Positions 745-39,559 of a stretch of 43,425 bases of DNA are shown piece by piece; within the stretch, counting starts at the first letter, position 1, and the number at the start of each line of letters is the position of its first letter. The stretch comes from Candidatus Micrarchaeaceae archaeon. GTDB taxonomy: Archaea; Micrarchaeota; Micrarchaeia; Micrarchaeales; CABMGC01. Under the pieces are notes generated by a model. The model made no database searches. It saw only the letters and a list, made by a program, of their open reading frames with translations, and was not told the DNA's origin. Where the stretch lies: positions 1-43,425 of the forward strand of contig JAVYWZ010000006.1 of NCBI GenBank assembly GCA_038877255.1. The letters run 5' to 3'. A program made the position numbers and the translations under genes.

Positions 745-844
745 GTGATATCTTCCCACGAATGAATTCGTGGGCTTCAATGGTAGCGTGTAGTTCAGCC
801 CGTTCTCCACCAGGCATTCTGCAAGCATACGAATGGACAAAGAT
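745..844 (-). ncRNA. Orphan IS200/IS605 right end / TnpB omega-RNA-like scaffold (element 1)
   Basis: The minus strand reads ATCTTT..CATTC-hairpin-GAATG CCTGGTGGAG...CTACCA TTGAAGCCCACGAATTCATTCGTGGGAAGATATCAC. It has a subterminal hairpin (755-774), a TCAC end, and a 5' ATCTTT complementary to the 3' GAAGAT. Confidence 0.65.
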
Positions 845-940
845 GATTATCTAAACATTTTAAATGATTTTGAATTGGCTGTAGAATTCGAGCCTGACAA
901 GTTTCACTATGGTCTTTTGCTAGAGTGCAAAAGGTAAGAG

Positions 941-3337
941 CTATATTGCTTTGGCATCTACTATTTTGGCGCCTGGATCAAGCCTCATTAGCCTTACACC
1001 GCTAGCCGATCTGCCTGTGTGCCTTATTGACGCTATGGGAATTGTTATGCTTACCCCTTTTGAATTTACTATTAGCAGTCTCTGCTCGTTTCTTATGAAA
1101 ATTGCCTTTGCAACAGTTCCTGTTTTTTCATTAACTTTGAAGTTCCTTACACCTGAGCCGCCTCTGCCCTGGAGCCTATAGCTCTCTACAGAGGTAAGCT
1201 TGCCAAAGCCCTTTTCAGATATGCTCAGTACGCTTCCTGAACCATCTGCAGCAAGAACGTTAACTGCAGAATCATTAGGTGAGAGCCTTATGCTCATTAC
1301 TCCTGCAGCAACTCTGCCCATGCTTCTAAGCATATTCTCGCTGAACTTTATTGCCTTGCCGTTCCTTGTCGCTACAAATATATAAGGCGCATTGGCGTAT
1401 ATTGCCACGTCTGCTATGCTGTCTTCGCCTCTAAGCATTATAGCCCTTATGCCAGTGCTTCTTGGCCTCGAGAACAGCTTCGCATGCATTTTCTTAATGC
1501 GGCCACGTCTTGTCAAAAACAAGATTTTATTATTCTCAAAATCATTGATATTGAATGCATCAACAACCGCCTCGCCGTTTCCAGGCAAAGCCAGAAGATT
1601 AGTTACAGCTCTTCCTTCTGAATAACGACTTCCTTCTGGCAGATTATACGCTTTCAGCCAGAAAACCCTGCCTTTGTTTGTTACAAACATAATATAATCT
1701 TTGTTGTTTGCTGCAATCACGCGCTTTATAAAGTCGCCTTCTTTTAGATTGAAGGTTATGACGCCTTTACCGCCACGCTCCTGCTCCTTGTATGTGGCGA
1801 GGCCTAGCCTTTTAACGTAGCCAGAATTTGTAAGCAGCACAACCACAGGCTCGCTCGCTATCAAGTCCTCGTCTTTTATCTCCTCTGGCTGTTCCATGAA
1901 AATAAGCTCTGTCCTTCTTGGTCGCTGGTACTTGTTTTTGAGCTCCAGCGTTTCCTGTTTTATTATGGAGTCTATCTTTTCCGGCGAAGCAAGAACACTG
2001 GCATAAAAAGAAATTTTATCGGTTAGTTCTTTCTTCTCGTTTTCAAGCGTGTTATGCTCTAGTTTTGTAAGCCTGCCCAGACGCATGTCGAGTATAGCTG
2101 CTGCTTGCTTCTCGCTCATGCCTAGCTTGCTCTGCAACTTTTCTTTCGCGTCGCTTGCTTCTGCGCTGCCCTGTACTATCTCTATTATTTGGTCTATGTG
2201 CGTTATTGCGTTAAGCAGCCCCTCCACTATGTGGTTACGTTCGGTAGCAACCTTAAGCTCGTGCTCGCTTCTCTTCTTCACGACTTCTCTTCTGTAATTT
2301 ATAAATGCAGTGATCATCTGCAATAGGTTGTAGCTGCGCAGGTCGTTTCCCTTGACTGCGAGGTTTATTATAGGAAATGTAATTTCGAGCTGCGTGTGCT
2401 TGTATAACTGGTTTATTACCTGCTCAGCGTTTGCCCCGCTTGCTAGGTAAATTTTTATGCTTATTCCGTTCTTGTCGCTCTCATCGCGTATGTCGCGAAT
2501 GCCTGTTATTATTTTCTGCTTTACGAGCTCGACTATGCTTTTTACAAGCTGCGCCTTGTTGACTCCAAACGGCAATTCAGTAACTACAAGCTTGTTATCT
2601 TCTGTATTTGTTATTCTTGCGCGAAGTACTAACTGGCCCCTACCAAAGCGATAGCCGTTAAGCGCATTTCCAGACATTATGCATATTCCGCCTGTGGGGA
2701 AGTCAGGCCCTTTCACTATGCGCAATAAATCTTCTACTGTTGCGCCTTTGTTGTCTAATGCGTAAACCACAGCGTCACAAACTTCTGCAAGGTTGTGTGG
2801 GGGTATGCTCGTAGCTACACCGACAGCTATTCCCGATGCGCCGTTAACAAGAAGAGTAGGCAGCTTGGAAGGCAGCACTACAGGCTCCTGCTCTGTATTA
2901 TCGAAATTAGGCACAAAAGGCACTGTTTCCTTGTCAATATCGTTTAGCATCTCTTCAGCAAGCCTAGTAAGCCTGACCTCTGTATAACGCATAGCAGCAG
3001 GAGGATCGCCGTCAATCGAGCCCATGTTGCCTTGGCCTTCGACAAGAATGTGGTTCATTGAAAAGTCTTGGGCTAAATGCACGATCGAGTCATAAACTGC
3101 TATGTCGCCATGCGGATGGTACTTGCCTATTATTTCGCCAACCACCCTTGCGCTCTTCTTTGTAGGCTTGTCATGCGTATTGTTAAGCATATACATGGCG
3201 TAAAGTATGCGCCTTTGAACGGGCTTGAGACCATCGCGAATATCAGGTATTGCCCTACCAACGATTACGCTCATGGCATAGTCTATGTAGCTTCTCTGCA
3301 TCTCGTCTTCGACAGGGACCTTTGTTATGTTTGCCAT
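941..3337 (-). CDS. gyrA: DNA gyrase subunit A
   Basis: Motifs [16 protein letters not shown] and AAMRYTE (catalytic Tyr), the GyrA-box QERGGKG, and C-terminal beta-pinwheel repeats. Confidence 0.98.
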
Positions 3338-3361
3338 GTAGACCAACAAATCAAAGCATAA

Positions 3362-5272
3362 TCATATATCTAGGAACACGACCTCGCTTGCGTGTTCTTC
3401 CAAGAATTTTCGCCTTTTCTGAACATCAACACCCATAAGTATCTCAAAGAGCTCGTTTGCACGCTCTGCGTCGCTTATTGTTACCTGCTTCAGCATTCGG
3501 CTCTCCGGATTCATTGTAGTGCTCCAAAGCTGTTCGGGATTCATCTCTCCAAGGCCTTTGTACCTTTGCACATCTGCTCCGTCTCCGAGCTGCTTGAGCT
3601 TTTCGGCTAGCTCTGCGTCCGTATAGCAATAGTATAGTGCTTTGCCTTTTGAAACCTTGTAAAGCGGAGGCTGTGCTATGTAAATGTAGCCTAGCTCTAT
3701 CAGCTTGCGCATAAACTTGTAGAAAAACGTAAGCAGAAGCGTTTGTATATGGCTTCCGTCTACATCAGCATCGCTCATTATTATGATTTTCTTGTAGCGC
3801 ACTTTGCTTGGATCAAACGTGTCTTTTATGCCTGTTCCGAGAGCAGTAACAAGCGCGTTTAATTCTGCGCTGTTGAATATTTTTTCGTCGCTTGCCTTCT
3901 CTACATTAAGTATCTTGCCCCTAAGTGGCAGCACTGCCTGTATCTGCTTGTCACGGCTTTGCTTGCTGGAACCGCCAGCGCTTTCTCCTTCAACAACGAA
4001 AAGCTCGGCAGCTTCAGGATTATCTACTATGCAATCTGCAAGCTTGCCGGGCAGCACTGCACTTTCGAATAGGCTTCTCTTCCTCGCAAGCTCTCTTGCT
4101 TTTCTTGCGCTCTCCCTGGCGTCCATTGCCAAAGAGACCTTATCGACGATCGCCCTTGCATCTTGAGGATGCTCTTCCAAATACCTAGAAAACACAGTAT
4201 AAATTGCTGTCTCTACAGCGCTTTTTATTTCGGGGTTGCCAAGCTTTTCTTTTGTCTGGCCTTCAAACTCAGGATTTGGTATAAGCACGCTTATAACTGC
4301 TGTTAAGCCTTCACGCGTATCCTCGCCTGTTATTTTACTGGTGTCTTTGCTCTCTTTTGCCATGTAATTGAGCAGCGACCTTGTAAGGCCTGCGTGAAAG
4401 CCTATTACATGTGTGCCACCTTCCTCGGTGCGTATGTTATTTACAAACGATTCCAATCTTTCTTCGTATGAATTTGTATATTGTATTGCAAAGGCTACGC
4501 TTACGCCGTTGGTCGTCTTTTGTCCACTAATCACAGACGTTATGGCTTGCTTATCTTTGTTTATGTATTTTATAAGATCCTCAAGCCCGTGTTCTGACAC
4601 ATATACTTCTTCTTCATGGCTGTTGAATCTGTCATCAATAAATTCAATCCGCAAGCCGGGATTTAAAAAACAGATATAGTGCATTCTTTCTTTTAGCAGT
4701 TCAGAATCAAATTTTGGGCTAGGAAAAATTTCAGGATCTGGTTTGAACTGTATAGTAGTTCCTGTTTTATCAGTAGCACCTTGCTCTTGTAATTGGCTTT
4801 TAGGTACGCCTCTTGAGAATTCTTGATAAAACTGCTTGCCATTTTTATACACTGTGGCCTTTGTGTACTCTGACAATGCATTAACTACTGTGAGGCCAAC
4901 TCCGTGAAGGCCTCCAGCAATCTTATACACGTCGTTACTAAACTTGGCGCCCTTGTGAAGCGTGGTCATTATTACCTCTAGGGCGCTCTTGCCAAATTTG
5001 GGCATAGTATCCACAGGTATGCCCCTCCCATCATCTGAAACTTCTGCAATGTCTCCTGTGTCGTCTTGTGAAAGTCTTATTTTTATGTTTTTGGCGTAGC
5101 CTGCCATGGCTTCGTCTACCGCATTATCTATCACTTCCATAAGCAGGTGCAGAACTCCAGAGCTGCCAGTGGAGCCTATGTACATTGCGGGCCTTTTCCT
5201 TATGCCCTGAGTGCCTTCAAGAACTACTATCTTCGATGCGTCATACTCGCTTGCTTCGTTTGCACTAGCCAT
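3362..5272 (-). CDS. gyrB: DNA gyrase subunit B
   Basis: Motifs IRKRPAMYIG, EVIDNAVDE, GGLHGVG, VEGESAGGS, PLRGKILNV, DADVDG and RYKGLGEM. Start placed at MASANE. Confidence 0.98.
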   Translation of the reverse strand: MASANEASEYDASKIVVLEGTQGIRKRPAMYIGSTGSSGVLHLLMEVIDNAVDEAMAGYAKNIKIRLSQDDTGDIAEVSDDGRGIPVDTMPKFGKSALEVIMTTLHKGAKFSNDVYKIAGGLHGVGLTVVNALSEYTKATVYKNGKQFYQEFSRGVPKSQLQEQGATDKTGTTIQFKPDPEIFPSPKFDSELLKERMHYICFLNPGLRIEFIDDRFNSHEEEVYVSEHGLEDLIKYINKDKQAITSVISGQKTTNGVSVAFAIQYTNSYEERLESFVNNIRTEEGGTHVIGFHAGLTRSLLNYMAKESKDTSKITGEDTREGLTAVISVLIPNPEFEGQTKEKLGNPEIKSAVETAIYTVFSRYLEEHPQDARAIVDKVSLAMDARESARKARELARKRSLFESAVLPGKLADCIVDNPEAAELFVVEGESAGGSSKQSRDKQIQAVLPLRGKILNVEKASDEKIFNSAELNALVTALGTGIKDTFDPSKVRYKKIIIMSDADVDGSHIQTLLLTFFYKFMRKLIELGYIYIAQPPLYKVSKGKALYYCYTDAELAEKLKQLGDGADVQRYKGLGEMNPEQLWSTTMNPESRMLKQVTISDAERANELFEILMGVDVQKRRKFLEEHASEVVFLDI

Positions 5273-5417
5273 GTCAATCCACTGCGCCTTCCAACAAATA
5301 AAAATAGATTTAAAAGAATATAAACCCTCGCATAGCAATTTGTCGTCTAAAAACAAGGTTTGTTATCGGTTATGCAAGGCATAATAATTTTATGGTCGCA
5401 TATAACAAAGTGGTAGA

Positions 5418-6737
5418 ATGGCAAAGAAAAGGATTTTGATCCTTGGCGCTGCAGGAAGAGACTTTCACATATTCAATACGCTTTTCAAAAATAATGATGA
5501 ATATGAAGTGGTTGGATTTACTGCAGCGCAAATTCCTTTTATAGAAAACAGAATATATCCGAAAGAATTGAGCGGAAGCATGTATAAAAATGGCGTACAG
5601 ATATATGATGAAAAAGATCTGGCAAAGTTGATAAAAGATCTTAAGATAGATGCTTGCATACTCGCATACAGTGACTTAAGCGACGATATTGTAATGGAAA
5701 AGGCTAGCATAGTAAATGCCAATGGCTCCGATTTTTGGCTCATTGCTCCACAAGCGAGCATGCTCAAATCAACAAAGCCAGTCATAGCAATCTGCGCAGT
5801 GAGGACTGGCGCAGGGAAAAGCCCGACCACAAGATATGTGGCAAGGCTTTTGAGAGATTTGGGCAAGAAGGTTGTAATAATAAGGCACCCAATGCCATAT
5901 GGAGACTTGAAGAAACAGGCAGTGCAAAGGTTTGCGAGCATCAAAGACCTTGATAAATACAAAACCACTATAGAAGAGCGCGAAGATTATGAGCCACACA
6001 TAAAGAACAGGTTTGTGGTTTTTTCTGGAGTAGACTATGAGCGCATACTCAGAGAGGCTGAAAAGGAAGCTGACATTATAATTTGGGACGGCGGAAACAA
6101 CGATACACCTTTCATTAAGCCTGATTTGATGATAACGATAGCTGACCCGCTAAGGGCAGGAAATGAGCTTACGTACTATCCGGGCCAGACTGCAGCGCGA
6201 ATTGCAGATGTAATAGTAATAAACAAGGTAAATTCTGCAAACAGCGAGGATGTTCAGCGTGTAGAAAATGACCTAAGAAAAATAAATGACAAAGCAAAAA
6301 TATTGCTTGCGGATTCGGTAGTAAGTGCAGATAGCCCAAGTTTGATAAAAGGCAAGCGCGTGCTGCTCGTAGAGGATGGTCCTACAATAACGCATGGCAA
6401 TATGACCTTCGGAGCGGCAACGGTTGCCGCTAAGCAATACGGTGCTGCCGAAATAATAAATGCAAAGCCATATGCTGTTGGCACAATAAAAGATGTATTC
6501 GAAAAGTATCCTTCGTTAGGAAAGGAACTCCCTGCTGTCGGCTACAGCGCAAAGCAGGTCAGGGATTTGGAAGCGACAATAAACAGGGCAGATTGCGATT
6601 CTGTTGTTTCCGCTACGCCTACAGACCTGAAGCACATAATAAACATAAACAAGCCAATAGTACAAGTAACATATGAGATAAAACCTAGAACAAAAGAGTT
6701 TGACGAAATAATAAAAGCATTTGCTAAAAATAGATAA
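5418..6737 (+). CDS. Arginine synthetase ArcE-like P-loop NTPase (cyclic 2,3-diphosphoglycerate synthase-related family)
   Basis: N-terminal GAAGRDFH, P-loop AVRTGAGKS, RHPMPYG, TIEEREDYEPH, WDGGNND and EDGPTITHG are characteristic of this family. Confidence 0.75.
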   Translation: MAKKRILILGAAGRDFHIFNTLFKNNDEYEVVGFTAAQIPFIENRIYPKELSGSMYKNGVQIYDEKDLAKLIKDLKIDACILAYSDLSDDIVMEKASIVNANGSDFWLIAPQASMLKSTKPVIAICAVRTGAGKSPTTRYVARLLRDLGKKVVIIRHPMPYGDLKKQAVQRFASIKDLDKYKTTIEEREDYEPHIKNRFVVFSGVDYERILREAEKEADIIIWDGGNNDTPFIKPDLMITIADPLRAGNELTYYPGQTAARIADVIVINKVNSANSEDVQRVENDLRKINDKAKILLADSVVSADSPSLIKGKRVLLVEDGPTITHGNMTFGAATVAAKQYGAAEIINAKPYAVGTIKDVFEKYPSLGKELPAVGYSAKQVRDLEATINRADCDSVVSATPTDLKHIININKPIVQVTYEIKPRTKEFDEIIKAFAKNR

Positions 6738-6751
6738 TAGCGCATAGACGT

Positions 6752-6825
6752 GGGCCCGTAACTCAGCTTGGTAGAGTGACTGGCTCTTAACCAGTAAGCC
6801 GAGGGTCCGAATCCCTCCGGGCCCG
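6752..6825 (+). tRNA. tRNA-Lys(CTT)
   Basis: Acceptor stem GGGCCCG/CGGGCCC, anticodon arm ACTGG-CTCTTAA-CCAGT and T-arm GAGGG-TCCGAAT-CCCTC. Confidence 0.93.
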
Positions 6826-7294
6826 AAAAATATACAAACTAAGCGCTCAGCGCCTGCGCGGTCTTCGTCGCGTGCCCCTTGTTTTGGCTCTTGAGCTTCT
6901 TTTTGCTGCTCTCGGTGTAGCCTTCTTCTGCGCGCCTTGCGTGCAGCTTTGCCTGCGCGCTTCTTTTTTCAATATCATATAGAAGGAAATTAGTGAAGCA
7001 CGAGCAAGGAGAAACAGGCATGTGAATAGTATTAGGGCGTGCTCCGTAGCATAGCAGCGTAGTAGTGTAGTGCCGCTAGCTCGGCATAGCCTAGCATATT
7101 CAAACCTAATGTCACATATCTACTAATTTGATAATCTTTATATATCAGTTATGACATAATATTAAATGTAAGGCTGCGTTAGGCTGCGACCATTGCGTAT
7201 GACATATTTACAAAACTGCAAATTATTGCACATAAATTGTAACTTTATGATAAGTATATATATTTACTGAAGCAAAAAGTATTATGGTGATGTT

Positions 7295-8014
7295 CTGAAG
7301 AAAGCTTATCCTAAGAAGCATGTTGTTAAGAAAACAGGCAAAACACAAAAACACATAGCGAAAGCAACGCATAAGGTAGCGCAAAAACGCATAGCAGTAC
7401 TGCACAATACGAACAAAAAAGAGAATAAAGGCAAAGTCAGCAGAAAAACTGCTGAGAAGCGTGCTGAGAAAAAGAAAGCAGAAGAGAAGCATATGCACGA
7501 ACAGCACGCCAAGAACCTCGAAATAATCAACACAATCCTGGCAAACGACAAAGTAGCAGGCTTCCTTTCTAATAACATAAGCAAATATGCTATTGACATA
7601 ATAAGAAAGATAGACGGGCTTAAGACTGATGAAGCGATTGCCGCAAATATGAACATGAAGATAAATGAAGCCAGGAGACTTCTGAATAAACTGGGTGACT
7701 ATGGCATTACAAGGTATGATACGCACAAAGATTCCAAAGGCTGGCTCACATTTGAGTGGTATGTTGATGTTGAAAAGCTTAATGATCTCAACAAAACAAT
7801 AAACAGCATACAGGAAGAAAACAAAATCAATTTACCGGATAATTGCGACGACTTCTTTATTTGTGAAAAATGTTATGAAAACGATAAAATAGTGCTTCCT
7901 TTTGAGGCTGCTTTTGAACATTCTTTTAAATGCCCAGAATGCCACAGGCCACTAAAAAGGCTAAGCAAGCAAGAAGTTACAGAATTGCTTGCAGTCGCAG
8001 AAAAGAATATATAA
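7295..8014 (+). CDS. tfe: Transcription factor E (TFE/TFIIE-alpha) with a Lys-rich N-terminal extension; probable CTG start (first ATG at 7493)
   Basis: Winged helix TDEAIA…EARRLLNKL…GWLTFEW plus zinc ribbon CEKC…FEAAFEHSFKCPEC. The frame is open upstream to a CTG lying 4 nt after GGTGA. Confidence 0.85.
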   Translation: MKKAYPKKHVVKKTGKTQKHIAKATHKVAQKRIAVLHNTNKKENKGKVSRKTAEKRAEKKKAEEKHMHEQHAKNLEIINTILANDKVAGFLSNNISKYAIDIIRKIDGLKTDEAIAANMNMKINEARRLLNKLGDYGITRYDTHKDSKGWLTFEWYVDVEKLNDLNKTINSIQEENKINLPDNCDDFFICEKCYENDKIVLPFEAAFEHSFKCPECHRPLKRLSKQEVTELLAVAEKNI

Positions 8015-8036
8015 TAAAGGCCTATATTCTTATAGA

Positions 8037-8123
8037 AGCGAGGTAGGGTAGCCTGGAGTACCCGCTGGGCTCATAAACATTTGTGAAACCCAGAAATCGG
8101 TGGTTCAAATCCACCCCTCGCTA
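8037..8123 (+). tRNA. Initiator tRNA-Met(CAT) with a ~12-nt intron at 37/38 (8076-8087)
   Basis: A1-U72 acceptor AGCGAGG/CCTCGCT, three G-C pairs in the anticodon stem CTGGG/CCCAG, and CTCATA followed by the insert AACATTTGTGAA. Confidence 0.9.
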
Positions 8124-8137
8124 TACCCAGTACAGTT

Positions 8138-8233
8138 CCACTATTCAGCTTGCTTTTATTATTGTATGTATATTTTTAATTTATATTTAATTTAAAAACA
8201 AAAAACAAAACATAAAACAAAAGTGAATAGTGG
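8138..8233. repeat. Long imperfect AT-rich inverted repeat downstream of tRNA-iMet
   Basis: Perfect 10-bp arms CCACTATTCA (8138) and TGAATAGTGG (8224) enclose a T-rich then A-rich interior. Confidence 0.55.
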
Positions 8234-8289
8234 CATACAACCCACCTTTGCTACTATTTTATTTATTTTTATTGGTATTTTATTAATAA

Positions 8290-8763
8290 GTGATTTTCGT
8301 GACTGAAGTCAGTGCTGAAATTTTATTCGACAAGCTTTCGGCTGAGAAGTCAACAGGCGAACTTAATCCTCTTACTGCTGATTTTTATTACAAAGCGGAA
8401 CAGTATATCGCTTTGCTTGCTAATACTGACAAATCAAGCGTTGAAGTTGTAAATGCCCAAAAAATGCTTTCGCAGTTGAAAGAGAAAAGAAAACAAAAAA
8501 TACTTGTTTACTTGGCTTTCGGGAAGCCTTTGCCTAAGCCGATTCCAGAGGAAGAGGAAACCTTATATAATGAAATACTTCAAATACTTAGCAACAGTGC
8601 TGACGTAAAAACAACAAGACTTAAAATACTCGCTGATTTACCTGAAATTATGACTCCGGAAGGCAAAAAGCTCGGGCCTTTCAAAAACGGCGAAGTTATA
8701 GAAGTAACAGACGTGAAAGATGCAAGCTTTATAGTGAACAACAAGATAGGAGAAAAGGTGTAA
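8290..8763 (+). CDS. DNA replication complex GINS subunit (Gins51-type)
   Basis: LxPLxxDFY and KEKRKQKIL helical A-domain, C-terminal GPFKNGEVIEV B-domain, and the conserved position upstream of rpl44e. Confidence 0.8.
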   Translation: MIFVTEVSAEILFDKLSAEKSTGELNPLTADFYYKAEQYIALLANTDKSSVEVVNAQKMLSQLKEKRKQKILVYLAFGKPLPKPIPEEEETLYNEILQILSNSADVKTTRLKILADLPEIMTPEGKKLGPFKNGEVIEVTDVKDASFIVNNKIGEKV

Positions 8764-8765
8764 CG

Positions 8766-9047
8766 ATGGAAATTGAAAAGCAAATAATGGCTTATTGCCC
8801 ATACTGCAAAAAGCATACGCTGCATAATGTCAAACAAGTTTCTAGCGGCAAGGTCAGGTACAACAGCTTTAGAAACAGGAAGCATGAAAGGACAGCAAGC
8901 GGTTATGTTGGTAGTGTTGAGCCTAGGCTGATAGTGAAGAAACAAGGTAAGCGCCAGCGTGTTATTTTACAGTGTACTGTGTGTAAAAAGTCGGTTGAGC
9001 GCGTTTTCTTTGGCAGAACAAAGAAGAAAATTGAGATAAAACGATAG
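8766..9047 (+). CDS. rpl44e: 50S ribosomal protein eL42 (L44e)
   Basis: YCPYCKKHTLH…GY…LQCTVCKK zinc ribbon. Confidence 0.93.
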   Translation: MEIEKQIMAYCPYCKKHTLHNVKQVSSGKVRYNSFRNRKHERTASGYVGSVEPRLIVKKQGKRQRVILQCTVCKKSVERVFFGRTKKKIEIKR

Positions 9048-9048
9048 T

Positions 9049-10553: not shown

Positions 10554-10576
10554 TTAAGGCAGATATTATCGGCAAT

Positions 10577-10660
10577 GCGCCGATAATCTAGCCTGGTAGG
10601 ATGCGAGCTTCCCAAAGCAGGAAACAGCTCGAAGCCCGGGTTCAAATCCCGGCCGGCGCA
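10577..10660 (+). tRNA. tRNA-Gly(CCC) with an 11-nt intron at 37/38 (10615-10625)
   Basis: CGAGC-TTCCCA[AAGCAGGAAAC]A-GCTCG, with a TTCC/GGAA central helix of a BHB-like motif and T-arm CCGGG-TTCAAAT-CCCGG. Confidence 0.9.
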
Positions 10661-10824
10661 GTGTAAAACAAACATTGAAAACATGAGAAAACAAAACACT
10701 GTTGCTTTTGCGCTATTCGTTATCAGATGCATGTTCGTGCCTTTCGTCGTAATAACAGCAGCAACCATGCTTAACAGCGCATCTTTGTTAGGTTTTTCAT
10801 ACAAGATATTAGCGATGCTTTGAC

Positions 10825-11732: not shown

Positions 11733-11896
11733 ATTGAGGCCTCTATGTTGCTTGTTATGCGTTATGTTGTTTTTAATGCCGTAGAACAGGTTAATATCTG
11801 TTCAAAAGTATTTATATGCCTATTGCTACGGCAAAACTGAGTGCATAAATAATATGTATAAAAGTCTGCTTTGCTTATTATTTACCTGTTTTGTTT

Positions 11897-16425: not shown

Positions 16426-16711
16426 TAAATCATCGCTTCGTTTCTTGCAGTTAATTTCTTTTACTACTTGGAATGTTGAATTTTTAAATACCCATTCTTC
16501 CGAGTACAAACCAAATCTTTACACAGGGGGTTGTTACCTTCTCTCTTCCTGCCTTTCCTGTGCCTAGCCGCTGAAGGCCTTGTTGGTGAGGTTTTTGAAG
16601 AGGAAGACAAGGCCGAGCGGACGAGGGAGCACATAGTGAAATGCATTGAAGCCCTCGCAGCGTTCGCAGCGAACGCGTAGCACTTTTATACATATGCAGA
16701 TAAGCATAATC

Positions 16712-20788: not shown

Positions 20789-20908
20789 GCCAGGGTGGCG
20801 GAACCTGGTAACGCGCTGGTCTTGAGCGCAGCTCAAGAGCTGATCTGTGATGCGAAAGAAAACCAGTGCCCCTCTGTGGGCTTTAGGGTTCAAATCCCTA
20901 CCCTGGCG
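20789..20908 (+). tRNA. tRNA-Ser(TGA) with a 34-nt intron at 37/38 (20827-20860)
   Basis: Acceptor GCCAGGG/CCCTGGC, CTGGT-CTTGAG[intron]A-ACCAG, long variable arm GCCC/GGGC and T-arm TAGGG/CCCTA. Confidence 0.9.
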
Positions 20909-22004: not shown

Positions 22005-22096
22005 AGCAGGTCTCAAAATTTATACGCATTTCAAGTTTTGCTCTAATATGCTATCTGAATGATATGGTTTCCCGCTCACTTTTATAAATAGGTTGG

Positions 22097-22203
22097 GCTA
22101 CGTGCTCATTGATGAGGTTATTTGATGCCGATTAGAGGCGCATAACAGTGAACCAATTGTGATTTATGTGACTAAAGCCCTTCCGTCAGGTTTGGTAGTG
22201 CAC
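22097..22203 (+). ncRNA. Degenerate orphan omega-RNA-like / IS200/IS605 right-end element (element 4)
   Basis: GCTAC..CTCAT/ATGAG hairpin..ATGCCGATTAGAG, long stem (TTAG/CTAA, CGCATAA/TTATGTG), then AAGCCCTTCCGTCAGGTTTGGTAGTGCAC. Confidence 0.4.
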
Positions 22204-24310: not shown

Positions 24311-24420
24311 GTGAACTACCAAGCAATTGCGGGCTGGGCTTCTCGGGGCTTGCCGCTCTCTGAGTTAAATAACACATACATGCAAACGCATTTATTTTGG
24401 TTTACAAAAATTCGGCAGTT
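24311..24420 (-). ncRNA. Orphan omega-RNA-like / IS200/IS605 right-end element (element 3)
   Basis: The minus strand ends …GGCAAGCCCCGAGAAGCCCAGCCCGCAATTGCTTGGTAGTTCAC. The 5' AACTGCC (24420-24414) is complementary to the 3' GGTAGTT. Confidence 0.5.
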
Positions 24421-28330: not shown

Positions 28331-28404
28331 GGCCATTTCAACTGGCTTTTCAATTCAAAATGGCTCGAATGCCAATTGCAAAGCGCGAAAGCAAAAGTCG
28401 GGTT

Positions 28405-29412: not shown

Positions 29413-29513
29413 AAGTAAAAATCGAAATGTAACTATAAATATAATAAGGTAATATTGAGAAAGTAATAAATATAAGAAAAGAGTGTTTTATGCTCTATTC
29501 GTAAGGTAAGCGT

Positions 29514-30074: not shown

Positions 30075-30078
30075 TGCC

Positions 30079-31068: not shown

Positions 31069-31076
31069 GTGCTTAT

Positions 31077-32513
31077 TTGATCGAAAAACCCAACATAATA
31101 TTTGTCATGCTCGACACAATGCGCGCCGACTATTTGAGAATGTATTCTGGTTCTTTATATCTGCCTGTAATCGAGAACGTTGCAAAAAACGGAGTGATAT
31201 ATGAGAATGCAATAGCCCCAGGTACATATACTGCACCGTCACATGCATCGTTATTTCTCGGAAAGAGGGTAAAGCACATCAAAATATTTTCAAAAGATTT
31301 ATTCAATGCATATGACAAAAACATAGATCCGTTCGTAGAACACGTGCACTACTTGACGAATACAGATGTCACAGTCGCGGCAAAGCTTAAATACTTAGGT
31401 TATAAGACCGCACTCTTCTCAAACAATCCTTTCCTGTCGAGGGGCACCAATCTTGCTAACGGCTTCGATTATGTAAACAACATCTGGTTAGATGACAAAA
31501 TCGCGAAAAACATGCTTACAAAACTCGAGCTTGGCATAGTCGCCAATAAAAATCTGAGAAGTGGATTTATAAACTTGTCATATATGATTTCAAGGCTTGT
31601 CACCCAAAACAAACTCGATGAACTTTATCTATTGTTAAAACGCAAGCTTGATGCGCATTTTGCCCAAAAATATGGCTTTTTCAAGCTCGATGCCGGCGCA
31701 CGCAAGACGAATGCGAAAATTAAAAGATACGTTGAACACACTGAAAACACAGGCAATTTCATATTTGTAAACTACATGGAAGGCCACGAAGGTTATCCTA
31801 CGAACCTTGTCGGTAATGGCCATGCTGAGATAGATCAGGAGAAATGGCTCTACCTTGCAGGGCTTTCTGATTATTCAGGCGTCAAGATAATAAGCAAGGC
31901 ATATGAGAAGCGGCTTGCATACTTAGATTCGAAAGTAGGAGAGCTTCTGTCAGTACTCAAAAGCTCAGGCATACTTGACAATGCAGTATTGATCCTCGCA
32001 AGCGACCATGGCCAAGCGTTTGCAGAGCACGGGCTTATGTACCATAACATGTTTCCATTCCAGGAGCTTGCGCATGTTCCTTTGATAACTGCAAGATTTA
32101 TTGACGGCAAGCAGGTACATTCCAAGGAGCGTGTTGAAAAGCCAGTTAGCCTTTCCGCATTGCATCAATCAATTCTCGACATAGGCACCGCGTTTGCTGA
32201 CGATATAAATGGCAACCTGCGTGCAGACAATTTCGTATTCTCAGAGCATGTCGGCATAACTGAATTCTGGGATTTAGGCCTGCTCAACAAGCTCAAAAAG
32301 AGATCTGTTTACGCTAGCAAAATATATGCTGCAAAGAAAAGGCTCAATACCTTTGCCACTGCAGTATACTATCGTGGATTCAAGCTGATCATTTACAAGG
32401 ATAAACGCTTAGAGTTGTATGATTTAAAAGCAGATCCTGGTGAAACAGAAAACATAATTTCACGCAACAGAAGCATTGCTCATAAGCTGCTTGCTGCAGA
32501 GCATGCAGCGTGA
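31077..32513 (+). CDS. Sulfatase-like hydrolase/transferase (alkaline phosphatase superfamily)
   Basis: Motifs [26 protein letters not shown] (Thr at the nucleophile position), SDHG, HVPL and [11 protein letters not shown]. Confidence 0.85.
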
Positions 32514-32544
32514 AGCAATACAATCAATACAATCATGTGATAAA

Positions 32545-33705
32545 ATGTCTAGTTACTTTGTTACATCAGAGAGCGTTACTGAGGGGCATCCGGACAAGGT
32601 CGCTGATCTTGTTTCCGACTCTGTGCTGGATGCAATATTGGAAAAAGATCCTGTAGCGCATGTTGACTGCGAAACGCTGATTATGCAGGGAATGGTTGTC
32701 GTTACAGGCCAAATAAGCACTAGCGCGCACGTCAACATACCATCAGTAGTGAGAGATACGCTTAAGCGCATAGGCCTCGACGATGCAAAAGACGGGCTCG
32801 ACTGGGCAACTTGCGGCGTTGTGGTGTCAATCGAGGAACAATCGCAAGACATAGCTCTAGGAGTCAAAGAAACAAACGGTGCTGAGCTTGGCGCCGGCGA
32901 TCAGGGGTTTGTCTTTGGATATGCATGCAAGGAAACACCAGAACTTATGCCTATGCCTATAATGCTGGCGCATGCGCTGGTAAGGCGGCTTACTGAGTGC
33001 AGAAAAAATGGCACAATACCTTATCTTAGACCGGATGGAAAGTCACAGGTAACAGTGGAATATGTTGATAACAAGCCAAAGAGGGTAAGCGCAATAGTAA
33101 TTGCTGCACAGCACGATGCAAACGTGAGTATAAGCAAGGTAAGGAGCGACATTAAAAACAAAGTTATCAAAAAGGTAATTCCTTCGACAATGCTTAGCAG
33201 TAGCACCAAGATAATAATAAACGGGACTGGCAGATTTGTAATAGGAGGCACATTGGCAGACTCCGGTCTTACCGGCAGGAAAACAATTGTTGATGGCTAT
33301 GGTGGCATTGGCAAGTCAGGCGGAGGCTGCTTCAGTGGAAAAGATCCTACAAAGGTAGACAGATCTGGTGCATATTACGCTAGGTATATAGCAAAGAACA
33401 TTGTGGCTTCTGGCCTTGCCGATGTGTGTGAAGTGCAGATAGCATATGCAATAGGACAAGCAGAGCCTGTAGGCTTTTACGTAAAAACAGAAGGCACAGG
33501 CAAGCTCAGCGACGAAGAACTTGCAAAAATAATAAAGAAGCATTTTGACATGAGGCCAGCAGCTATTATAAAAGAGCTTAATCTGAGGCGACCAATATAC
33601 AGAGAGACAGCAGCCTATGGGCATTTCGGCAGAAAAGGGAAGGGCTTCACTTGGGAAATAACCGACAAGGCAGAGCTATTGAGCAGGTATCTGCCCAAGC
33701 AATAA
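32545..33705 (+). CDS. metK: S-adenosylmethionine synthetase, bacterial/eukaryotic type
   Basis: Motifs [48 protein letters not shown] and YGHFG. Confidence 0.96.
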
Positions 33706-33760
33706 CAAGAAGCTTGAAAAGAATAAGATTGACTAGGAAATGCAAGCTAGGAAATGCAAG

Positions 33761-34066
33761 CTATGAAATAGTAACCTCTATTTGTACTGAATCTGGCACA
33801 GGTATACGCATTACCTGCCTGAGCGACTGGTCGCTGCCATCTATCTCTACAAGCCACTTATGCACGCGCATCTCCCAGTGATCATAGGTATCTGAGCCGT
33901 CACCACAAGGAGTCTTCCTTGTCGCAATTATCATGTGCTTTGTAGGCAATGGCACTGGCCCTTTATACTTTACGCCTGTGCCCTTTGCTATATCTATTAT
34001 CTGCTTTGAAACGTCTCTTGCAGCTTCTTTGGAGCGGCTTATAAGTTTTATTCTTGCTATTGTCGT
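33761..34066 (-). CDS. rps10: 30S ribosomal protein uS10; apparent ACG start codon
   Basis: (M)TIARIKLIS…GPVPLPTK…TRKTPCGDGSDTYDHWEMRVHK. The 101-aa frame begins at an ACG 4 nt after GGTGA. Confidence 0.9.
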   Translation of the reverse strand, partial: TTIARIKLISRSKEAARDVSKQIIDIAKGTGVKYKGPVPLPTKHMIIATRKTPCGDGSDTYDHWEMRVHKWLVEIDGSDQSLRQVMRIPVPDSVQIEVTIS

Positions 34067-34084
34067 TGCTTCACCGTTTAGTTT

Positions 34085-35356
34085 TCAACCCTGCCTTTTG
34101 ACCACATCAAGCACTATGCCTGCAGCAACAGTTCGGCCCATGTCCCTTACTGCAAACCTGCCAAGCTGTGGAAAGTCGCTGTATTTCTCGATGACCGTTG
34201 GCTTTGTAGGTTTTACCTTTACTATCGCTACGTCACCGTTCTTTATGAATTCTGGATTCTTCTGCAGTGTTTGGCCTGTCTTAGGATCTTTCTTTTCTAC
34301 TATTTCAGAGATAGTGCATGCAACTTGCGCTGTATGTATGTGAAATACAGGGGTATAGCCCGGCGCTATTGCCGTAGGATGGTTCATCACGACAATCTGA
34401 GCCGTAAACTCATCAGCTACCGTGGGCGGGCTGCTTACAGGACCAACCACATCTCCCCTTTTCAAGTCCTTCTTTTCAACCCCTTTTATGTTAAAGCCAA
34501 TGTTGTCGCCAGGCTCTGCCTGCTGCAACGCCTGATGGTGCATCTCTATGCTCTTTACGTCGGTCTTTATACCAGGTGGCATTATTATGATTAGGTCTCC
34601 AGGTTTCATAACTCCTGTTTCAACCCTGCCTACAGGCACAGTGCCGAATCCCGAGACTGAATAAACATCTTGCAAAGGCAACCTCAACGGCTTGTCAAGT
34701 GGCTTCTGAGGCAGAACAAAAGTATCAAGTGCCTGGAGCAACGTCGGGCCAGAATACCATGTCATCTTGTCTGATGGCTTTGCTACGTTGTCGCCTTGCA
34801 GTGCTGAATAAGGCACAAATAACATTTTGCTAACGTCATACCCTATCGACTTAAGCAGCGTGCTTACCTGTGTCTTTACATCGTCGAACTTAATCCTGTC
34901 ATAGCCTACTGCATCCATCTTGTTTATGCCTATTACCATCTGGCTTATTCCAAGGACTTTTGCAAGGTATGCATGCTCCCTTGTCTGTGGCTGTATGCCT
35001 TCAGTAGCAGATACCACAAGCACAGCAGCGTCTGCTTGGCTTGTGCCTGTTATCATGTTCTTTACGAAGTCCCTGTGGCCCGGTGCATCAATTACAGTGA
35101 AATAATATTTTGGCGTTCGGAATTCCCTTTCGGCGATATCTATGGTCATGCCTCTTTCTCGCTCTTCCTTAAGCTCGTCAGTTACATAGGCGAATTCCAA
35201 AGTAGCCTGATTGTACTTTGCCTCCTCGTCTTTTAACTTTCTAAGCTCTTGCTCATTTACTGCTCCGGTTTCATAAAGGAGCCTTCCGACTGTAGTTGAC
35301 TTGCCATGGTCTATATGGCCTATGAAGATTAAATTCATGTGCGGCTTTTCTGCCAT
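34085..35356 (-). CDS. tuf: Translation elongation factor 1-alpha
   Basis: Motifs [30 protein letters not shown] and [10 protein letters not shown]. Confidence 0.98.
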
Positions 35357-35523
35357 AAAATCTCCCTTAAACATAAGTAGTTTTGGCTTTTAATTGCTTT
35401 CATATTGCTTCTATAATCAGTTAGTTTACAGCTATGACATTCAACGATAAATTTATTTCTAATACATATAAATATCTTTGCATATTTTCTTCGTCTGCAA
35501 TGCCAAGTTTAATTTCGCATTGC

Positions 35524-37164
35524 CTATTGAAAACTGCCAATTTTCTTTATCTGCTCTTCGGTTAGCTTGCTAAAGAGTGGTGCCAGATCAGAAAGATCGA
35601 GCTTCCTGCCTGCAATGTCTTCTTGCAGATTATCTAGTTTATGCTCAGTAGCGAAGAATCTGCATATTCTGTCGCTCGAATCCGGCATGAAAGGATATAG
35701 CAGAATGCCTATGTCATGCGCAAGCTTTGCGCAGGCAAAAACAACGCCATCTGTATCTTGGTTTTGATTTTTAAGCGCTTTCCACGGTTCTTTGGCGCTC
35801 ATAAACTCATTTCCCATGGATGCGATTGCAACAACTGAACGCAGGGCTTCACGCATTTGCAAGTGCTCAAAATAATCGACGTATCTTTTCTCTTCCTGTG
35901 CGACATTTTCAAGCAGCGCTTCTACGTCATCGTCATGTGCTCCTGCAACTGGTATTGTGCTTGAGAAATTGGTCTTTATGAAAGAGAGCGTTCTGTGCAC
36001 AAAGTTGCCGATTATGTCATTAAGCTCATTGTTTATGGCCTGTTCAAGCACCTCTACTGTAAAGTCAGTGTCTGCGGTTTCAGGCAGTATAGAAGCCATG
36101 GCAAAGCGCCAGTATTCGCCAGGCAAGGCCTCTAATGCTTCTTCAAGATTCATGCCTATGTGCCTGCTTTTCGAGAACTTCATGCCATGCCACATGAGAA
36201 ATTCATACGCATAAATAGTTGTGGGCATAACATAGCCTAGGTTGCTGCCCATCAATATAGCGGGCCACATCAACGTATGCGGCTCTATATTATCTTTGCC
36301 CATGAACTGAACGAGCTTTGTGTTGCTGCCAAGCCAATACCGCTCTGCAGTCTCCTTATCGTGCTCATAGGTTATTCCTATATAGCCAATGAGTGCATCG
36401 AACCAGACATAAAATACCTTATCTTCATAGCCCTGCTTTGGCACTGCAAAGCCCCACGCGGTATCGCGCGTTATCTCTCTATTCTTAAGTCCTTTCGCTA
36501 TGTAGCCTTCGCTGTTGTTTATCGCGTTTTTGCTCCAGTTGTTCTTTGCGCCGTTTTCTATAAACTGCTTTATCCTATTTTGCAGTGTTTCCAGGTTCAG
36601 CGCAAGGTTTTTTACTTGTTTGAATGTTATGTCGCTCTTTCCGCAGATGTTGCAATGAGGATTAATAAGCTCCTTAGGCGTCAAAAGCCTGCCGCAGTTG
36701 TCGCACTGGTCTCCGCGCGCGTGTTCATATCCGCAGTATGGGCACGTGCCTTCGATAAACCTATCAGGTATGAATCTCTTATCTATGTTGCAATAAGGTT
36801 GTTCGCTAACTGACTCTGTTAAAAAGCCATTGGAATCCAAGGCGTTGAAGATTTTGTAAACTATAATCTTATTTTGTTCTGTGCCTGTCCTGCCGTAATG
36901 CGTAAACGTGCAGCTGTATTTCTCAAGTATCTGCTTTAGTCGTTCATGGTTCTTGTCGGCAAGCTCCTTTGCAGCAGTGCCCTGCTTCAGCGCGGCAATT
37001 TCTATGGCTGAGCCGTGCTCATCAGAGCCACAGATAAATATTGCGTCTTCGCCTTTTAACATGAGATACTTGTAGTAAATATCAGCAGGCAGTATGCTGC
37101 CTACAAAATTGCCCAAGTGGATCATGTCCTGTACATACGGCAGTGCTGAAGTTATTATTTGCAT
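35524..37164 (-). CDS. metG: Methionyl-tRNA synthetase (short form, no C-terminal tRNA-binding domain)
   Basis: Motifs TSALPY…HLGN, GSDEHG, zinc knuckles, FYVWFDA and KFSKS. Confidence 0.96.
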   Translation of the reverse strand: MQIITSALPYVQDMIHLGNFVGSILPADIYYKYLMLKGEDAIFICGSDEHGSAIEIAALKQGTAAKELADKNHERLKQILEKYSCTFTHYGRTGTEQNKIIVYKIFNALDSNGFLTESVSEQPYCNIDKRFIPDRFIEGTCPYCGYEHARGDQCDNCGRLLTPKELINPHCNICGKSDITFKQVKNLALNLETLQNRIKQFIENGAKNNWSKNAINNSEGYIAKGLKNREITRDTAWGFAVPKQGYEDKVFYVWFDALIGYIGITYEHDKETAERYWLGSNTKLVQFMGKDNIEPHTLMWPAILMGSNLGYVMPTTIYAYEFLMWHGMKFSKSRHIGMNLEEALEALPGEYWRFAMASILPETADTDFTVEVLEQAINNELNDIIGNFVHRTLSFIKTNFSSTIPVAGAHDDDVEALLENVAQEEKRYVDYFEHLQMREALRSVVAIASMGNEFMSAKEPWKALKNQNQDTDGVVFACAKLAHDIGILLYPFMPDSSDRICRFFATEHKLDNLQEDIAGRKLDLSDLAPLFSKLTEEQIKKIGSFQ

Positions 37165-37223
37165 GCAAAAAATTCTCAATTGTATTTTATAAGCGTATAT
37201 GCAAATATGTAGTTAAACGCACT

Positions 37224-37742
37224 TCAAGTATATCTAAGATTTATAGAAGCTATTTCCTGCGTTGTATAGCCATACATTGGAACAGTGTAGTTTAACCAAA
37301 GGTAGCCTATAAACGAATTCCCAACCGGGCCCTTGTCTATGCCACCAGGTCCGTAGCAGTAAACGCTGAATGACTGCGCTGTGCCGCTGTACATGTTAAT
37401 GCCTGTTCCGGGTGCGCTATTCGTTGGATAATAAGCAACAGAATTTGTCACGTATATGTTGCCGAACATCGGTCTGTTTCCTGTTGAATTTGCAAGCGAA
37501 GAGCACGAAAGGCCGTGCACTACTATAGGCGTGCCTATTGCCTGTGCCAGGTTTATTGTTAGAACGCCGCTTGTGTTTATTGCATAACTTTGGCAGGCGA
37601 AGCCAGGCGCCGGGCTGCATGTTGAAGTGGAAAGCACAGGCGTGAGGAATGAAATTTTAACAATGACAGCTATCGCTATCGAAATTACTATAAGTGCTAT
37701 GCCGTATGACATTAAAAAGTCTATAGCCGCTTGCAGGCGCAT
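37224..37742 (-). CDS. Class III signal peptide (pilin-like) protein
   Basis: MRLQ/AAIDFLMSYGIALIVISIAIAVI followed by C…PGFAC, as in the 19556 protein. Confidence 0.75.
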   Translation of the reverse strand: MRLQAAIDFLMSYGIALIVISIAIAVIVKISFLTPVLSTSTCSPAPGFACQSYAINTSGVLTINLAQAIGTPIVVHGLSCSSLANSTGNRPMFGNIYVTNSVAYYPTNSAPGTGINMYSGTAQSFSVYCYGPGGIDKGPVGNSFIGYLWLNYTVPMYGYTTQEIASINLRYT

Positions 37743-37897
37743 TGTCATCAACTAAGACAATAGATTTTCATGCTTTTATTACTTTTTACTGTGTTGCACT
37801 GTGCAAGGCGCAAGCAACGCTATTTATTTATATCTTTTCTTAGAAATACGTATTGCTGTTTCTCCCGCAATCACTGCAATTTGCAGGAGGGATTTAC

Positions 37898-38533
37898 ATG
37901 CTTGAAGACAAATACCCTGAATTTGAGAAGTTCTTATCAGAGAACAAGGCCAAGCGCAAGTTTAAACAAACAGTAGAGCTTGCAATAAACTTCAAAGGCA
38001 TAGACTTCAACGAGCAGAGCAACAGGCTTAACCTTTCTATAACACTTCCTAATGGCAGAGGAAAGAGCAACAAAGTAGCAGTATTCGCCACAGAAAAGGA
38101 TATTATAGAAGACGCAGGCAAGAGCGGAATAAGGGTCATAAGCGGAGAAGAACTTATGAGTATAGCAAACGACAAGCAAAAGCTTAACGACCTGCTTGCA
38201 TACGACCTGCTTGCACAAGCCAGCCTAATGCCGACTATAGCAAGGCAGTTGGGCCAGTTTCTAGGGCCTAAGGGCAAGATGCCAAAGCCCATACTGCCAG
38301 GCAACAGCATAAGCAAAATCGCAAAAGAAAGTGCACAACAGATTGTAATAAAAAGCAGTGGCAAGTTCCTGCCCACTGTGCATTGCACTGTAGGCACTGA
38401 GGACATGGAGCCTTCACAGATATTCGAAAACATAAAAGAAGTGCTTAACACGATAGCAAGTAAGGTGAACACAAACAACATAAAATCAGTTTACGTAAAG
38501 CTCACAATGAGCAAGTCAGAGAGGCTGATATGA
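37898..38533 (+). CDS. rpl1: 50S ribosomal protein uL1
   Basis: Motifs RKFKQTVELAINFK, LGPKGKMP and VYVKLTM. Confidence 0.96.
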   Translation: MLEDKYPEFEKFLSENKAKRKFKQTVELAINFKGIDFNEQSNRLNLSITLPNGRGKSNKVAVFATEKDIIEDAGKSGIRVISGEELMSIANDKQKLNDLLAYDLLAQASLMPTIARQLGQFLGPKGKMPKPILPGNSISKIAKESAQQIVIKSSGKFLPTVHCTVGTEDMEPSQIFENIKEVLNTIASKVNTNNIKSVYVKLTMSKSERLI

Positions 38534-39375
38534 TGCAAAAAAGGCAAAAAGAGGCGCTTGTAAGAAGCCTTAAAGAAGGTATTGCAAAGAGCAAAACAGT
38601 TGCAATAATGCCTATAAATGGCATGCCAGATGCGCTCTTGCAAAAGGTGCGCAACCAGCTTAGAGACAGTTCAAAAATCATAGTTACAAGGAAAACATTG
38701 CTTTCGCGAGTACTGATCGGCAATTTAAGCCCACTTGCTGAGAGCATGCAGGGAAACGTGGCGCTTGTTCTAAGCGACCTTAGCCCGTTCGAATTGCATA
38801 AGAGAGCCAGCGCCAACAAGCTAGAGCTTATTGCCAAGCCCGGCCAAACGGCCCAAAATGACATAGTTATAAAGGCAGGCGAAACCAGCGTTGCGCCAGG
38901 CCAGTCCGTTACAGAGCTTAAAGCCGCAGGCATAGACGTGCAGATACAGAAAAACAAGGTAGTGATCGCGAAGGACAAGGTAGCAGTAGAAGCAGGCAAG
39001 CGTGTAAGCTCAGTTATAGCAAACGCGCTCAAAATACTCGGAATAAAGCCGTTTTTGGTAAGCGCCACAATAAGTGCGGCTTACTCTGAAAACGTACTTT
39101 TCAGCAGACAGGCTCTCAGCATTGATGAGGCATTCGCAACAAATGAAATAGCGAAGTCTTTTGCGGAGGCAAACAGCCTAAGCATAGGCATAGGCTTTGT
39201 CACGCAGTACAATGCAGGCTATTTTATAAGCAAGGCACATGCCGAGGCGCTCGCACTAGGCATTGCGGCTAAGGTTCCAGAACCAGAGATCACGAAGCTG
39301 CTTTTGGCTGGCGCAGCGGCACAAGCCAATAAGATTAATTCGGCGATAGGTAATTCCCCTTCGGCAAGCGCATGA
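38530..39375 (+). CDS. rpl10: 50S ribosomal protein uL10 (P0)
   Basis: LLQKVRNQLR, AKPG…DIVIKAGET…PG and LKILGIKP; follows rpl1. Confidence 0.93.
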   Translation: MMQKRQKEALVRSLKEGIAKSKTVAIMPINGMPDALLQKVRNQLRDSSKIIVTRKTLLSRVLIGNLSPLAESMQGNVALVLSDLSPFELHKRASANKLELIAKPGQTAQNDIVIKAGETSVAPGQSVTELKAAGIDVQIQKNKVVIAKDKVAVEAGKRVSSVIANALKILGIKPFLVSATISAAYSENVLFSRQALSIDEAFATNEIAKSFAEANSLSIGIGFVTQYNAGYFISKAHAEALALGIAAKVPEPEITKLLLAGAAAQANKINSAIGNSPSASA

Positions 39376-39388
39376 ATCGAGCAAAGAT

Positions 39389-39396
39389 ATTTATAG
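39389..39396 (+). promoter_or_regulatory. TATA box with upstream purine-rich BRE-like bases, ahead of the omega-RNA-like element
   Basis: GCAAAGATATTTATAG lies ~22-25 nt upstream of the first hairpin, the same spacing seen for tRNA genes in this window. Confidence 0.55.
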
Positions 39397-39416
39397 TCAT
39401 GCTAAATAATAGTATT

Positions 39417-39559
39417 GTCGGAAACGGCTAGCCTGCGGACGCAGGTTAAACGCTCGCAGAGGATTATGCCTCTGACATAAGCAAGCATGTTTATTGAAGC
39501 GAGAAGCTCCAAACAAGCAGACGTGGCGTAAGCTAAGTCTGTAAGTCGGGGTAGTTAAC
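39417..39559 (+). ncRNA. Orphan TnpB omega-RNA-like scaffold (element 2) between rpl10 and rpl12
   Basis: GGCTA-GCCTGC/GCAGGT hairpin, then AAACGCTCGCAGAG..CCTCTG..GCAAG..TGAAGCGAGAAGCTCC..CAGAC/GTCTG..GGGGTAGTTAAC. CTCGC pairs with GCGAG and GGCTA pairs with TAGTT. Confidence 0.72.

Follow-up and report, generated by a model that had tools for sequence, protein, structure and literature searches.

Four short loci dispersed over a 43,425-nucleotide (nt) contig of Candidatus Micrarchaeaceae archaeon (assembly GCA_038877255.1, contig JAVYWZ010000006.1) are very probably right-end pieces of non-autonomous transposons of the IS200/IS605 (TnpB) type. They are ordinary mobile-DNA debris, not a new guide-RNA system, and comprise one complete miniature transposon and three stumps. 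The window analyzed here is that entire contig, designated C6. The loci, termed e1 to e4, were taken from an earlier note on the same DNA, which placed them at 745-844 (-), 22097-22203 (+), 24311-24420 (-), and 39417-39559 (+), called them omega-RNA-like, and favored a dispersed repertoire of trans-acting guide RNAs over a set of non-autonomous IS200/IS605 remnants. The likeness to omega-RNAs and IS200/IS605 elements was borne out, in that e1, e3, and e4 share homology at their 3' ends with right ends lying beside tnpB genes in the same genome, and the remnant alternative fits, most fully at e4.

In IS200/IS605 elements, the transposase TnpA recognizes a subterminal right-end hairpin, a linker, and a cleavage site on single-stranded DNA, and right-end DNA read as RNA corresponds to the 3'-terminal scaffold portion of the omega-RNA, the guide RNA of TnpB. 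The layout common to the four loci, with AAGCC, a hairpin, GG, and an xxAC end, is that of the conserved right-end terminus. As judged from IS200/IS605 biology, it would arise from the hairpin, linker, and cleavage site recognized by TnpA in elements that carry tnpB and move as single-stranded DNA via "peel and paste." The differences between the loci probably reflect three family origins, with e1 derived from family A, e3 and e4 from family B, and e2 from a C-like family. The four loci were delimited as follows:

39340 to 39559, plus strand: e4, a whole family-B protein-less IS200/IS605 derivative of about 220 nt, of the kind known as palindrome-associated transposable elements (PATEs) or miniature inverted-repeat transposable elements
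39340 to 39396, plus strand: left end of e4, from the family-B left-end profile
about 39431 to 39559, plus strand: right end and putative omega-RNA-scaffold part of e4
24311 to 24363, minus strand: e3, a family-B micro-remnant of 53 nt, with a left-end start and a right-end tip
745 to 789, minus strand: e1, the terminal stump of a family-A right end, 45 nt, with the hairpin CCCACGAAT/ATTCGTGGG and then GAAGATATCAC
22175 to 22203, plus strand: e2, a 29-nt motif resembling a right-end terminus, with AAGCCC, a short hairpin, and GGTAGTGCAC

Of the proposal that four elements share one layout, the 3' right-end modules stand (that of e2 weakly) and the extents do not. Element sequence makes up only 45 of 100 nt at e1, 29 of 107 nt at e2, and 53 of 110 nt at e3, and the 143 nt first assigned to e4 form part of a 220-nt element beginning at 39340. 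The long-range pairings proposed between 5' and 3' segments also fell away: the AACTGCC segment of e3 lies outside the element, and three of the four predicted folds are no better than those of shuffled sequences (z-scores of -1.1, +0.8, and -0.3 for e1, e2, and e3), leaving e4 as the sole locus that folds better (-4.5). Direct alignment of the four loci yielded 51% mean column identity and nothing usable, and an Rfam search returned no family at the gathering score and nothing near in E-value mode. That all four loci are intergenic holds in part; the e4 element overlaps the final 36 nt of the frame for ribosomal protein P0.

Both transposon ends were identified at e4. A family-B left-end profile, built from nine copies that all lie outside the window, matches 39334-39396 (nhmmer E 9.1e-7), and the right end at 39476-39559 is found by R1, a covariance model of 17 family-B right ends from the same genome, again all outside the window, with 77.5 bits (E 5e-18). 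The element is preceded by TTAAT (39335-39339), and its right border falls at 39559 or 39560, an uncertainty of 1 nt. By BLAST, nt 78-129 of e4 match more than 10 genome loci, many of them at contig ends, and a sibling copy at C9:25931-26200 is 89% identical over 148-149 nt.

Alignment of the P0-P1 region revealed an empty site in all five same-genus relatives (G001-G005). The relatives read ..AATAA(A/G)ATTAAT|AAT.., and in the window ATTAAT is separated from (T)AATGTTGCC by about 220 nt; the insertion is clean, with no target duplication in the alignment, and R1 finds no right end at the orthologous P0-P1 loci of these five genomes. The P0 C-terminal tail differs widely among the same relatives, which indicates that the insertion site tolerates change. 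The e4 PATE inserted after TTAAT without duplicating its target, cutting off this variable tail. Both element-host junctions are covered, at a depth of about 4, by DNA contigs of one of three public sets examined; no element-free contig joining across e4 was present in the three sets, and such contigs cannot reveal rare excision alleles.

The insertion has left its mark on the host gene. The present end of P0 (rpl10) takes its last 11 codons and stop from the transposon left end (39340-39375), and the original P0 tail (39560-39619), displaced to the far side of the element, is no longer translated. Two family-B copies share 8 nt (TAATGTTG) just past the right end, at 39560-39567 and at C16:4610-4617; the sharing is taken as chance, because in the window these nucleotides are host P0 sequence that can be aligned with the relatives.

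The four loci belong to a larger population of related ends. The host genome (713,429 bases in 30 contigs, 92% complete) contains three IS200/IS605-type families, with borders derived by comparing copies within the genome, and in total two full-length tnpB frames, five mini-tnpB copies, and about 84 end pieces. The statement in the earlier note that no nuclease or transposase gene is present is correct for the window, where C6 gave no match, and tnpB is present elsewhere in the genome. The family borders, the principal related copies, and two further fragments in the window are listed here:

Family A: left end follows or starts with TTATAAAAGTGAGCGGGAAA; right end finishes ..GGAAGCCCACGAATTCATTCGTGGGAGGATGTCAC
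Family B: left end follows TTAAC; right end finishes ..GGTAGTTCAC
Family C: right end finishes ..GGAAAGCCCTTTCCGTTAGGGAGGGGTAGTTTAC
G000:C7:40106-41446: family-B tnpB, the C7 frame of 462 amino acids (aa)
C8:16965-17447, C4:8354-8836, C7:5108-5604, C2:1-417, and C21:2590-2961: internally deleted family-A copies, at least five, with a frame of 129-157 aa
22010 to 22093, minus strand: family-A left-end fragment of 84 nt, absent from the earlier note (nhmmer E 7.5e-18)
40006 to 40057, plus strand: second family-A left-end fragment, about 52 nt in length and situated downstream of the P1 gene (nhmmer E 3.4e-8, and BLAST)

Seven matches to the TnpB zinc ribbon (PF07282) were found in the genome, two of them in the full-length frames, which span 462 aa on C7 (446 aa as an open reading frame from a start codon) and 441 aa on C27 (433 aa). 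The C7 protein matches the solved TnpB of ISDra2 with an E-value of 1.6e-8. Five shorter frames of 137-157 aa are in-frame fusions of a TnpB N-terminal helix-turn-helix (HTH) with the C-terminal zinc ribbon. These mini-tnpB copies are internally deleted family-A elements, 93-97% identical to one another, and no full-length family-A tnpB was found in the host genome. In all three families, many loci are gene-free fusions of a left-end and a right-end segment, the derivatives known as PATEs, and BLAST shows such direct joins at C16, C10, C1, C5 (twice), C15, C9, and C4. A genome scan with R1 returned 20 family-B right ends (E <=1.1e-5), of which 12, on a reading of the BLAST segments, retain only the last 85 nt or so, fused to a left end. 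With nhmmer profiles built partly from the counted copies themselves, the counts at E <=1e-3 were 14 left and 17 right ends for family A, 16 left ends for family B, and 7 left and 10 right ends for family C. TTAAC precedes the family-B left ends in eight pattern matches, the motif being included in the pattern, and in the copies with listed flanks.

Further evidence on family B comes from other genomes. The right-end module lies at the tnpB 3' end in 5/5 orthologous loci, and a Y1 tnpA gene directly adjoins the family-B tnpB orthologue in G086 and G041, so that family B is a regular IS605-type element outside this host. TnpA (PF01797) was detected in 81 of the 150 other genomes of the order that formed the wider comparison set, a tally that includes the unpublished G074, and in none of the three same-genus genomes searched.

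The right-end hairpins show covariation between copies. The family-A hairpin occurs in two compensatory stem versions, CCCACGAAT../..ATTCGTGGG and CTCCCAACC../..GGTTGGGAG, and the family-C stems vary between copies around a similar loop. For family B, 2 of 11 predicted pairs in the terminal module are compensatory, and 6 of 39 predicted pairs have changed on both sides in the 170-nt tail, which was aligned from five other genomes and five copies of the host. Mean column identity over this tail is 81% at the DNA level, compared to 67-68% identity between the orthologous proteins, which fits joint coding for protein, a putative guide-RNA scaffold, and a transposon end. Measured against the tail, scaffold sequence amounts to 45 nt in e1, 29 nt in e2, 32 nt in e3, and about 130 nt in e4, and it is complete in none. 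The first hairpin differs between e4 and its C9 sibling by compensatory changes (CCTGC/GCAGG versus CCTAG/CTAGG); both copies retain about 130 nt of the tail, which overlaps tnpB in the full element, and both are missing 43 nt (C7:41327-41369) that include one hairpin.

The remaining loci are shorter, and their assignments draw on these families. e3 consists of TTAAC (24364-24368), about 20 nt of left-end start (TCAGAGAGCGGCAAGCCCC), and the last 32 nt of a right end, and is a fusion of the two extreme ends. The left-end-start pattern has eight matches in the genome and none in the reversed control, and one of the eight is 24354-24368; the left-end profile matches 24370-24345 with E 0.014. On the right-end side, 24311-24342 is 97% identical to C7:41420-41451, the right end of the full-length tnpB element, and R1 scores it at 21.8 bits, for which E is 9e-4 when the window is searched and 0.014 for the whole genome. 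e3 is absent at the corresponding site of G004, with borders that are not resolvable. e1, a terminal stump, matches model positions 57-102 of 102 of the family-A right-end profile (nhmmer E 1.3e-7) and is 87-88% identical by BLAST to C4:8791-8836 and C8:17405-17447, just 3' of mini-tnpB frames; its last 34 nt match sites about 150 nt 3' of the TnpB zinc-ribbon matches on C8 and C4. By eye, the motif of e2 is nearest to family-C right ends, and 22097-22174 is without any relative.

Several results weigh against assigning the four loci to IS200/IS605-type transposons. Neither a Y1 TnpA (PF01797, 0 matches) nor a serine recombinase was found in the host genome, at its completeness of 92%. For e1, no family-A left-end profile match lies nearby, and no empty site is readable, the region downstream of gyrA being non-syntenic in G002 and G005. 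The intergenic regions of the relatives at e2 and e3 are too diverged for exact borders and establish absence only. At e2 itself, the pattern AAGCCN{8,25}GGYAGTKYAC was written after the locus had been seen; BLAST finds no match in the genome; R1 gives 7.4 bits (E 3.9, rank 12 of 22 window matches); the family-C right-end profile gives nothing at E <=100; and DNA searches of the five same-genus and 150 same-order genomes turned up no relative, with no homologue at E <0.01 per genome in the host or in the 150. Among the checks suggested in the earlier note, a covariance model, built from the 17 copies outside the window rather than from the four loci, recovers e4 and e3 and fails to recover e2, and the comparison of left ends and empty sites supports e4 (left end, empty sites in 5/5 relatives, a flank that matches only itself), supports the left end alone at e3, and finds none at e1.

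These negative results leave room for the view that e2 has no transposon origin, and that the same may apply to the 5' parts of e1 and e3; on this view, which we regard as somewhat unlikely, the 29-nt motif belongs to an ordinary promoter and resembles a right end by chance. Besides the failed searches and a fold no better than shuffles, this view gains from the expectation that GGTAGTNNAC alone should occur 0.44 times per window, and from the location of the one 20-nt match inspected, in G102, which falls within a coding region and was rejected as a relative; the family-C left-end profile likewise shows no relative at e2. Against it stands the combined motif, which occurs twice in the window, where 0.01 occurrences are expected, and 15 times in the genome compared with 0 in the reversed control, the other 14 genome matches being at family-B or family-C right ends or having the same hairpin layout. 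In addition, the 84-nt family-A left-end fragment, which has BLAST matches to 13 other loci, abuts e2 at a distance of 4 nt, marking the spot as an insertion hotspot, and the whole stretch, fragment included, is missing at the syntenic site of G002. On balance e2 is probably a right-end stump, a weak assignment. A reading of e2 as a C/D-box RNA, suggested by an internal TGATGA, was dropped by eye, with no D or D' box at the proper spacing.

Transposon remnants may also be retained for a host function, and co-option of these loci as regulatory DNA, in promoters or leaders of neighboring genes, would account for several of their positions. TATA-like boxes are present in the left-end fragment at 22010-22093, which stops 7 nt short of the probable start codon (ATG) of a glycosyltransferase gene and may now supply the promoter of that gene; e3 lies 83 nt upstream of the start of the 3-hydroxy-3-methylglutaryl-CoA reductase gene, on the same strand; and e4 furnishes the end of the P0 frame. 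However, the corresponding sites lack the elements in same-genus relatives (e4 in 5/5, e2 and the left-end fragment in G002, and e3 in G004), and the elements are therefore recent rather than conserved, which makes maintenance by the host an unlikely explanation.

A separate question is whether any right end of the IS200/IS605 remnants still serves a TnpB protein. The family-B TnpB encoded on C7 is unusual in that its N-terminus lacks the HTH motif typical of these proteins, and a glutamine occupies the canonical RuvC-II glutamate position (AYQND, SYQDD, and AYQND) in 3/3 aligned full-length orthologues, which come from different genera and share a conserved aspartate two residues past the glutamine. 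Rearranged RuvC-II sites are among those described in archaeal TnpB branches (PMC10691335), and for that reason the glutamine is read as a variant site, not as proof of a dead enzyme. e4 alone of the four loci keeps most of the scaffold, and loading of family-B TnpB with it in trans is conceivable on that basis. If loading occurred, the known selfish effect would be expected, with the element-free allele cut and the element copied back. There is only a slight chance that the single family-B TnpB uses the approximately eight family-B copies with a long scaffold, e4 included, as distributed trans guides. If it did, and the protein were a nuclease with a rearranged site, homing would maintain protein-less elements in a genome lacking TnpA; if the protein were nuclease-dead, the outcome would be RNA-guided binding at about eight host sites, including the ribosomal P0-P1 operon.

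The reading favored in the earlier note, in which each locus is an independent gene for a trans-acting guide RNA and all together form an array-less repertoire by which the genome's TnpB is directed to foreign or host targets, is highly improbable: e1, e2, and e3 preserve right ends of 45, 29, and 32 nt, far below the 170-nt tail and too little for a scaffold within the 29-53 nt of element present, and the family-B right ends cut back to about the last 85 nt (12 of 20) match the needs of transposition and not those of a scaffold. The genome does encode TnpB in two full-length frames, and the family-C frame, outside the alignment and with its translation read by eye, keeps D, E, and D at the RuvC motif positions. 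Likewise, e4 and its C9 sibling keep about 130 of 170 nt of the tail, with the compensatory first hairpin, and e4 stands in sense orientation within the L1-P0-P1 ribosomal operon, where read-through transcription is likely. The flanking sequences speak against guides, however. Each 16-nt flank matches only itself in the genome at up to one mismatch, and at two to three mismatches the number of genome matches is close to that expected by chance; a search of viral contigs for exact matches only found none to any of the four 20-nt flanks; and the e4 flank is host P0 sequence that can be aligned with relatives. The presumed guides are no more than the host DNA that adjoins each right end.

Debris of IS200/IS605-type elements has precedents among known systems. 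PATEs, named by Dyall-Smith et al., are described from Haloquadratum as protein-less derivatives with fused IS605-type ends (PMC3119063). The elements described here resemble them in having no inverted terminal repeats, no target duplication, and subterminal hairpins, in the fusion of the left and right ends of a tnpB element, in copies that far outnumber full elements, and in a right end that holds omega-RNA sequence; e4 and about a dozen other genome loci fit on each point tested. They differ from the described PATEs in their uncultured archaeal host, its 0.71-Mb genome, and the failure to find TnpA. Both ends homologous to a tnpB element, with no coding capacity, are present at e4; e3 has a left-end start and a right-end tip only, and e1 and e2 have a right-end piece only. 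The 53-nt e3 falls far below the length of the PATEs described so far, and it, e1, and e2 are better termed remnants. PATEs of Geobacillus are described as encoding omega-RNAs for use in trans (bioRxiv 10.1101/2023.03.14.532601), and e4 as a source of trans-acting omega-RNA would consequently not be new.

The family-B tail resembles the omega-RNA of TnpB systems (obligate mobile element-guided activity, OMEGA) in overlapping the tnpB 3' end, ending at the right-end border, being more conserved than the protein, and containing covarying hairpins. In contrast to a TnpB omega-RNA, most of the scaffold is kept only in e4, and e1 to e3 preserve the last 29-45 nt. Sense overlapping transcripts (sotRNAs) of IS1341-type genes have reportedly been found in archaea (PMC4615843). 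A further comparison is with TldR proteins, described as nuclease-dead TnpB transcription factors (bioRxiv 10.1101/2023.11.30.569447). The family-B TnpB resembles these in the glutamine at the canonical RuvC-II glutamate; unlike them, the family-B element retains its left and right transposon ends, is accompanied by about 20 derived copies, and has tnpA beside its orthologues. With CRISPR arrays the loci share only the idea of many guides next to a common repeat-like module, and they differ in having no array, no acquisition machinery, flanks that are host insertion-site DNA, and no exact viral-contig match.

The importance of these findings beyond annotation is small, as PATEs and remnants are already known and the host is what is new. 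Nevertheless, they show that a 0.71-Mb archaeal genome can hold about 84 IS200/IS605 end pieces and two full tnpB genes with no detectable TnpA, and that one such derivative has remodeled the 3' end of a ribosomal protein gene. The family-B TnpB, with its RuvC-II glutamine and conserved 170-nt tail, could add modestly to the catalogue of archaeal TnpB variants. More generally, right-end stumps resemble omega-RNAs in raw sequence, and caution is warranted, most such stumps being debris.

The genes of the window, which include intron-bearing tRNAs, gyrase, the archaeal ribosomal proteins L1, P0, and P1, and mevalonate-pathway genes, identify the source as a small archaeal genome, possibly DPANN-like to judge by size alone, and the one public sequencing run found to contain the stretch is labeled a hot-springs metagenome. 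Positions 1-110 match the beginning of contig C21 (C21:1-110) in reverse complement with 99% identity, an overlap that probably marks an assembly join. Three tRNA genes with introns of 14-37 nt lie at 20789-20908, 8037-8123, and 10577-10660; ARAGORN overlooked the first and misread the tRNA at 10576 with a 4-nt anticodon. Directly after the tRNA at 8037-8123 is a 96-nt imperfect palindrome (8138-8233, 76% self-complementary). By eye, a further tRNA gene is present at 42511-42614 (-), with the anticodon loop CTTCTAA and a T-loop enlarged by about 27 inserted nt. A similar gene occurs at C3:45172-45270, and both are unreported by Rfam at the gathering score and by ARAGORN. Finally, a 76-nt repeat that begins with the promoter-like GTTGAATTTTTAAATACC and shows no relationship to any of the three transposon families lies at 16473-16548. 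It is one of five genomic copies with 78-86% identity, the others being at C8:120-193, C1:85542-85614, C3:44747-44818, and C19:6226-6297.

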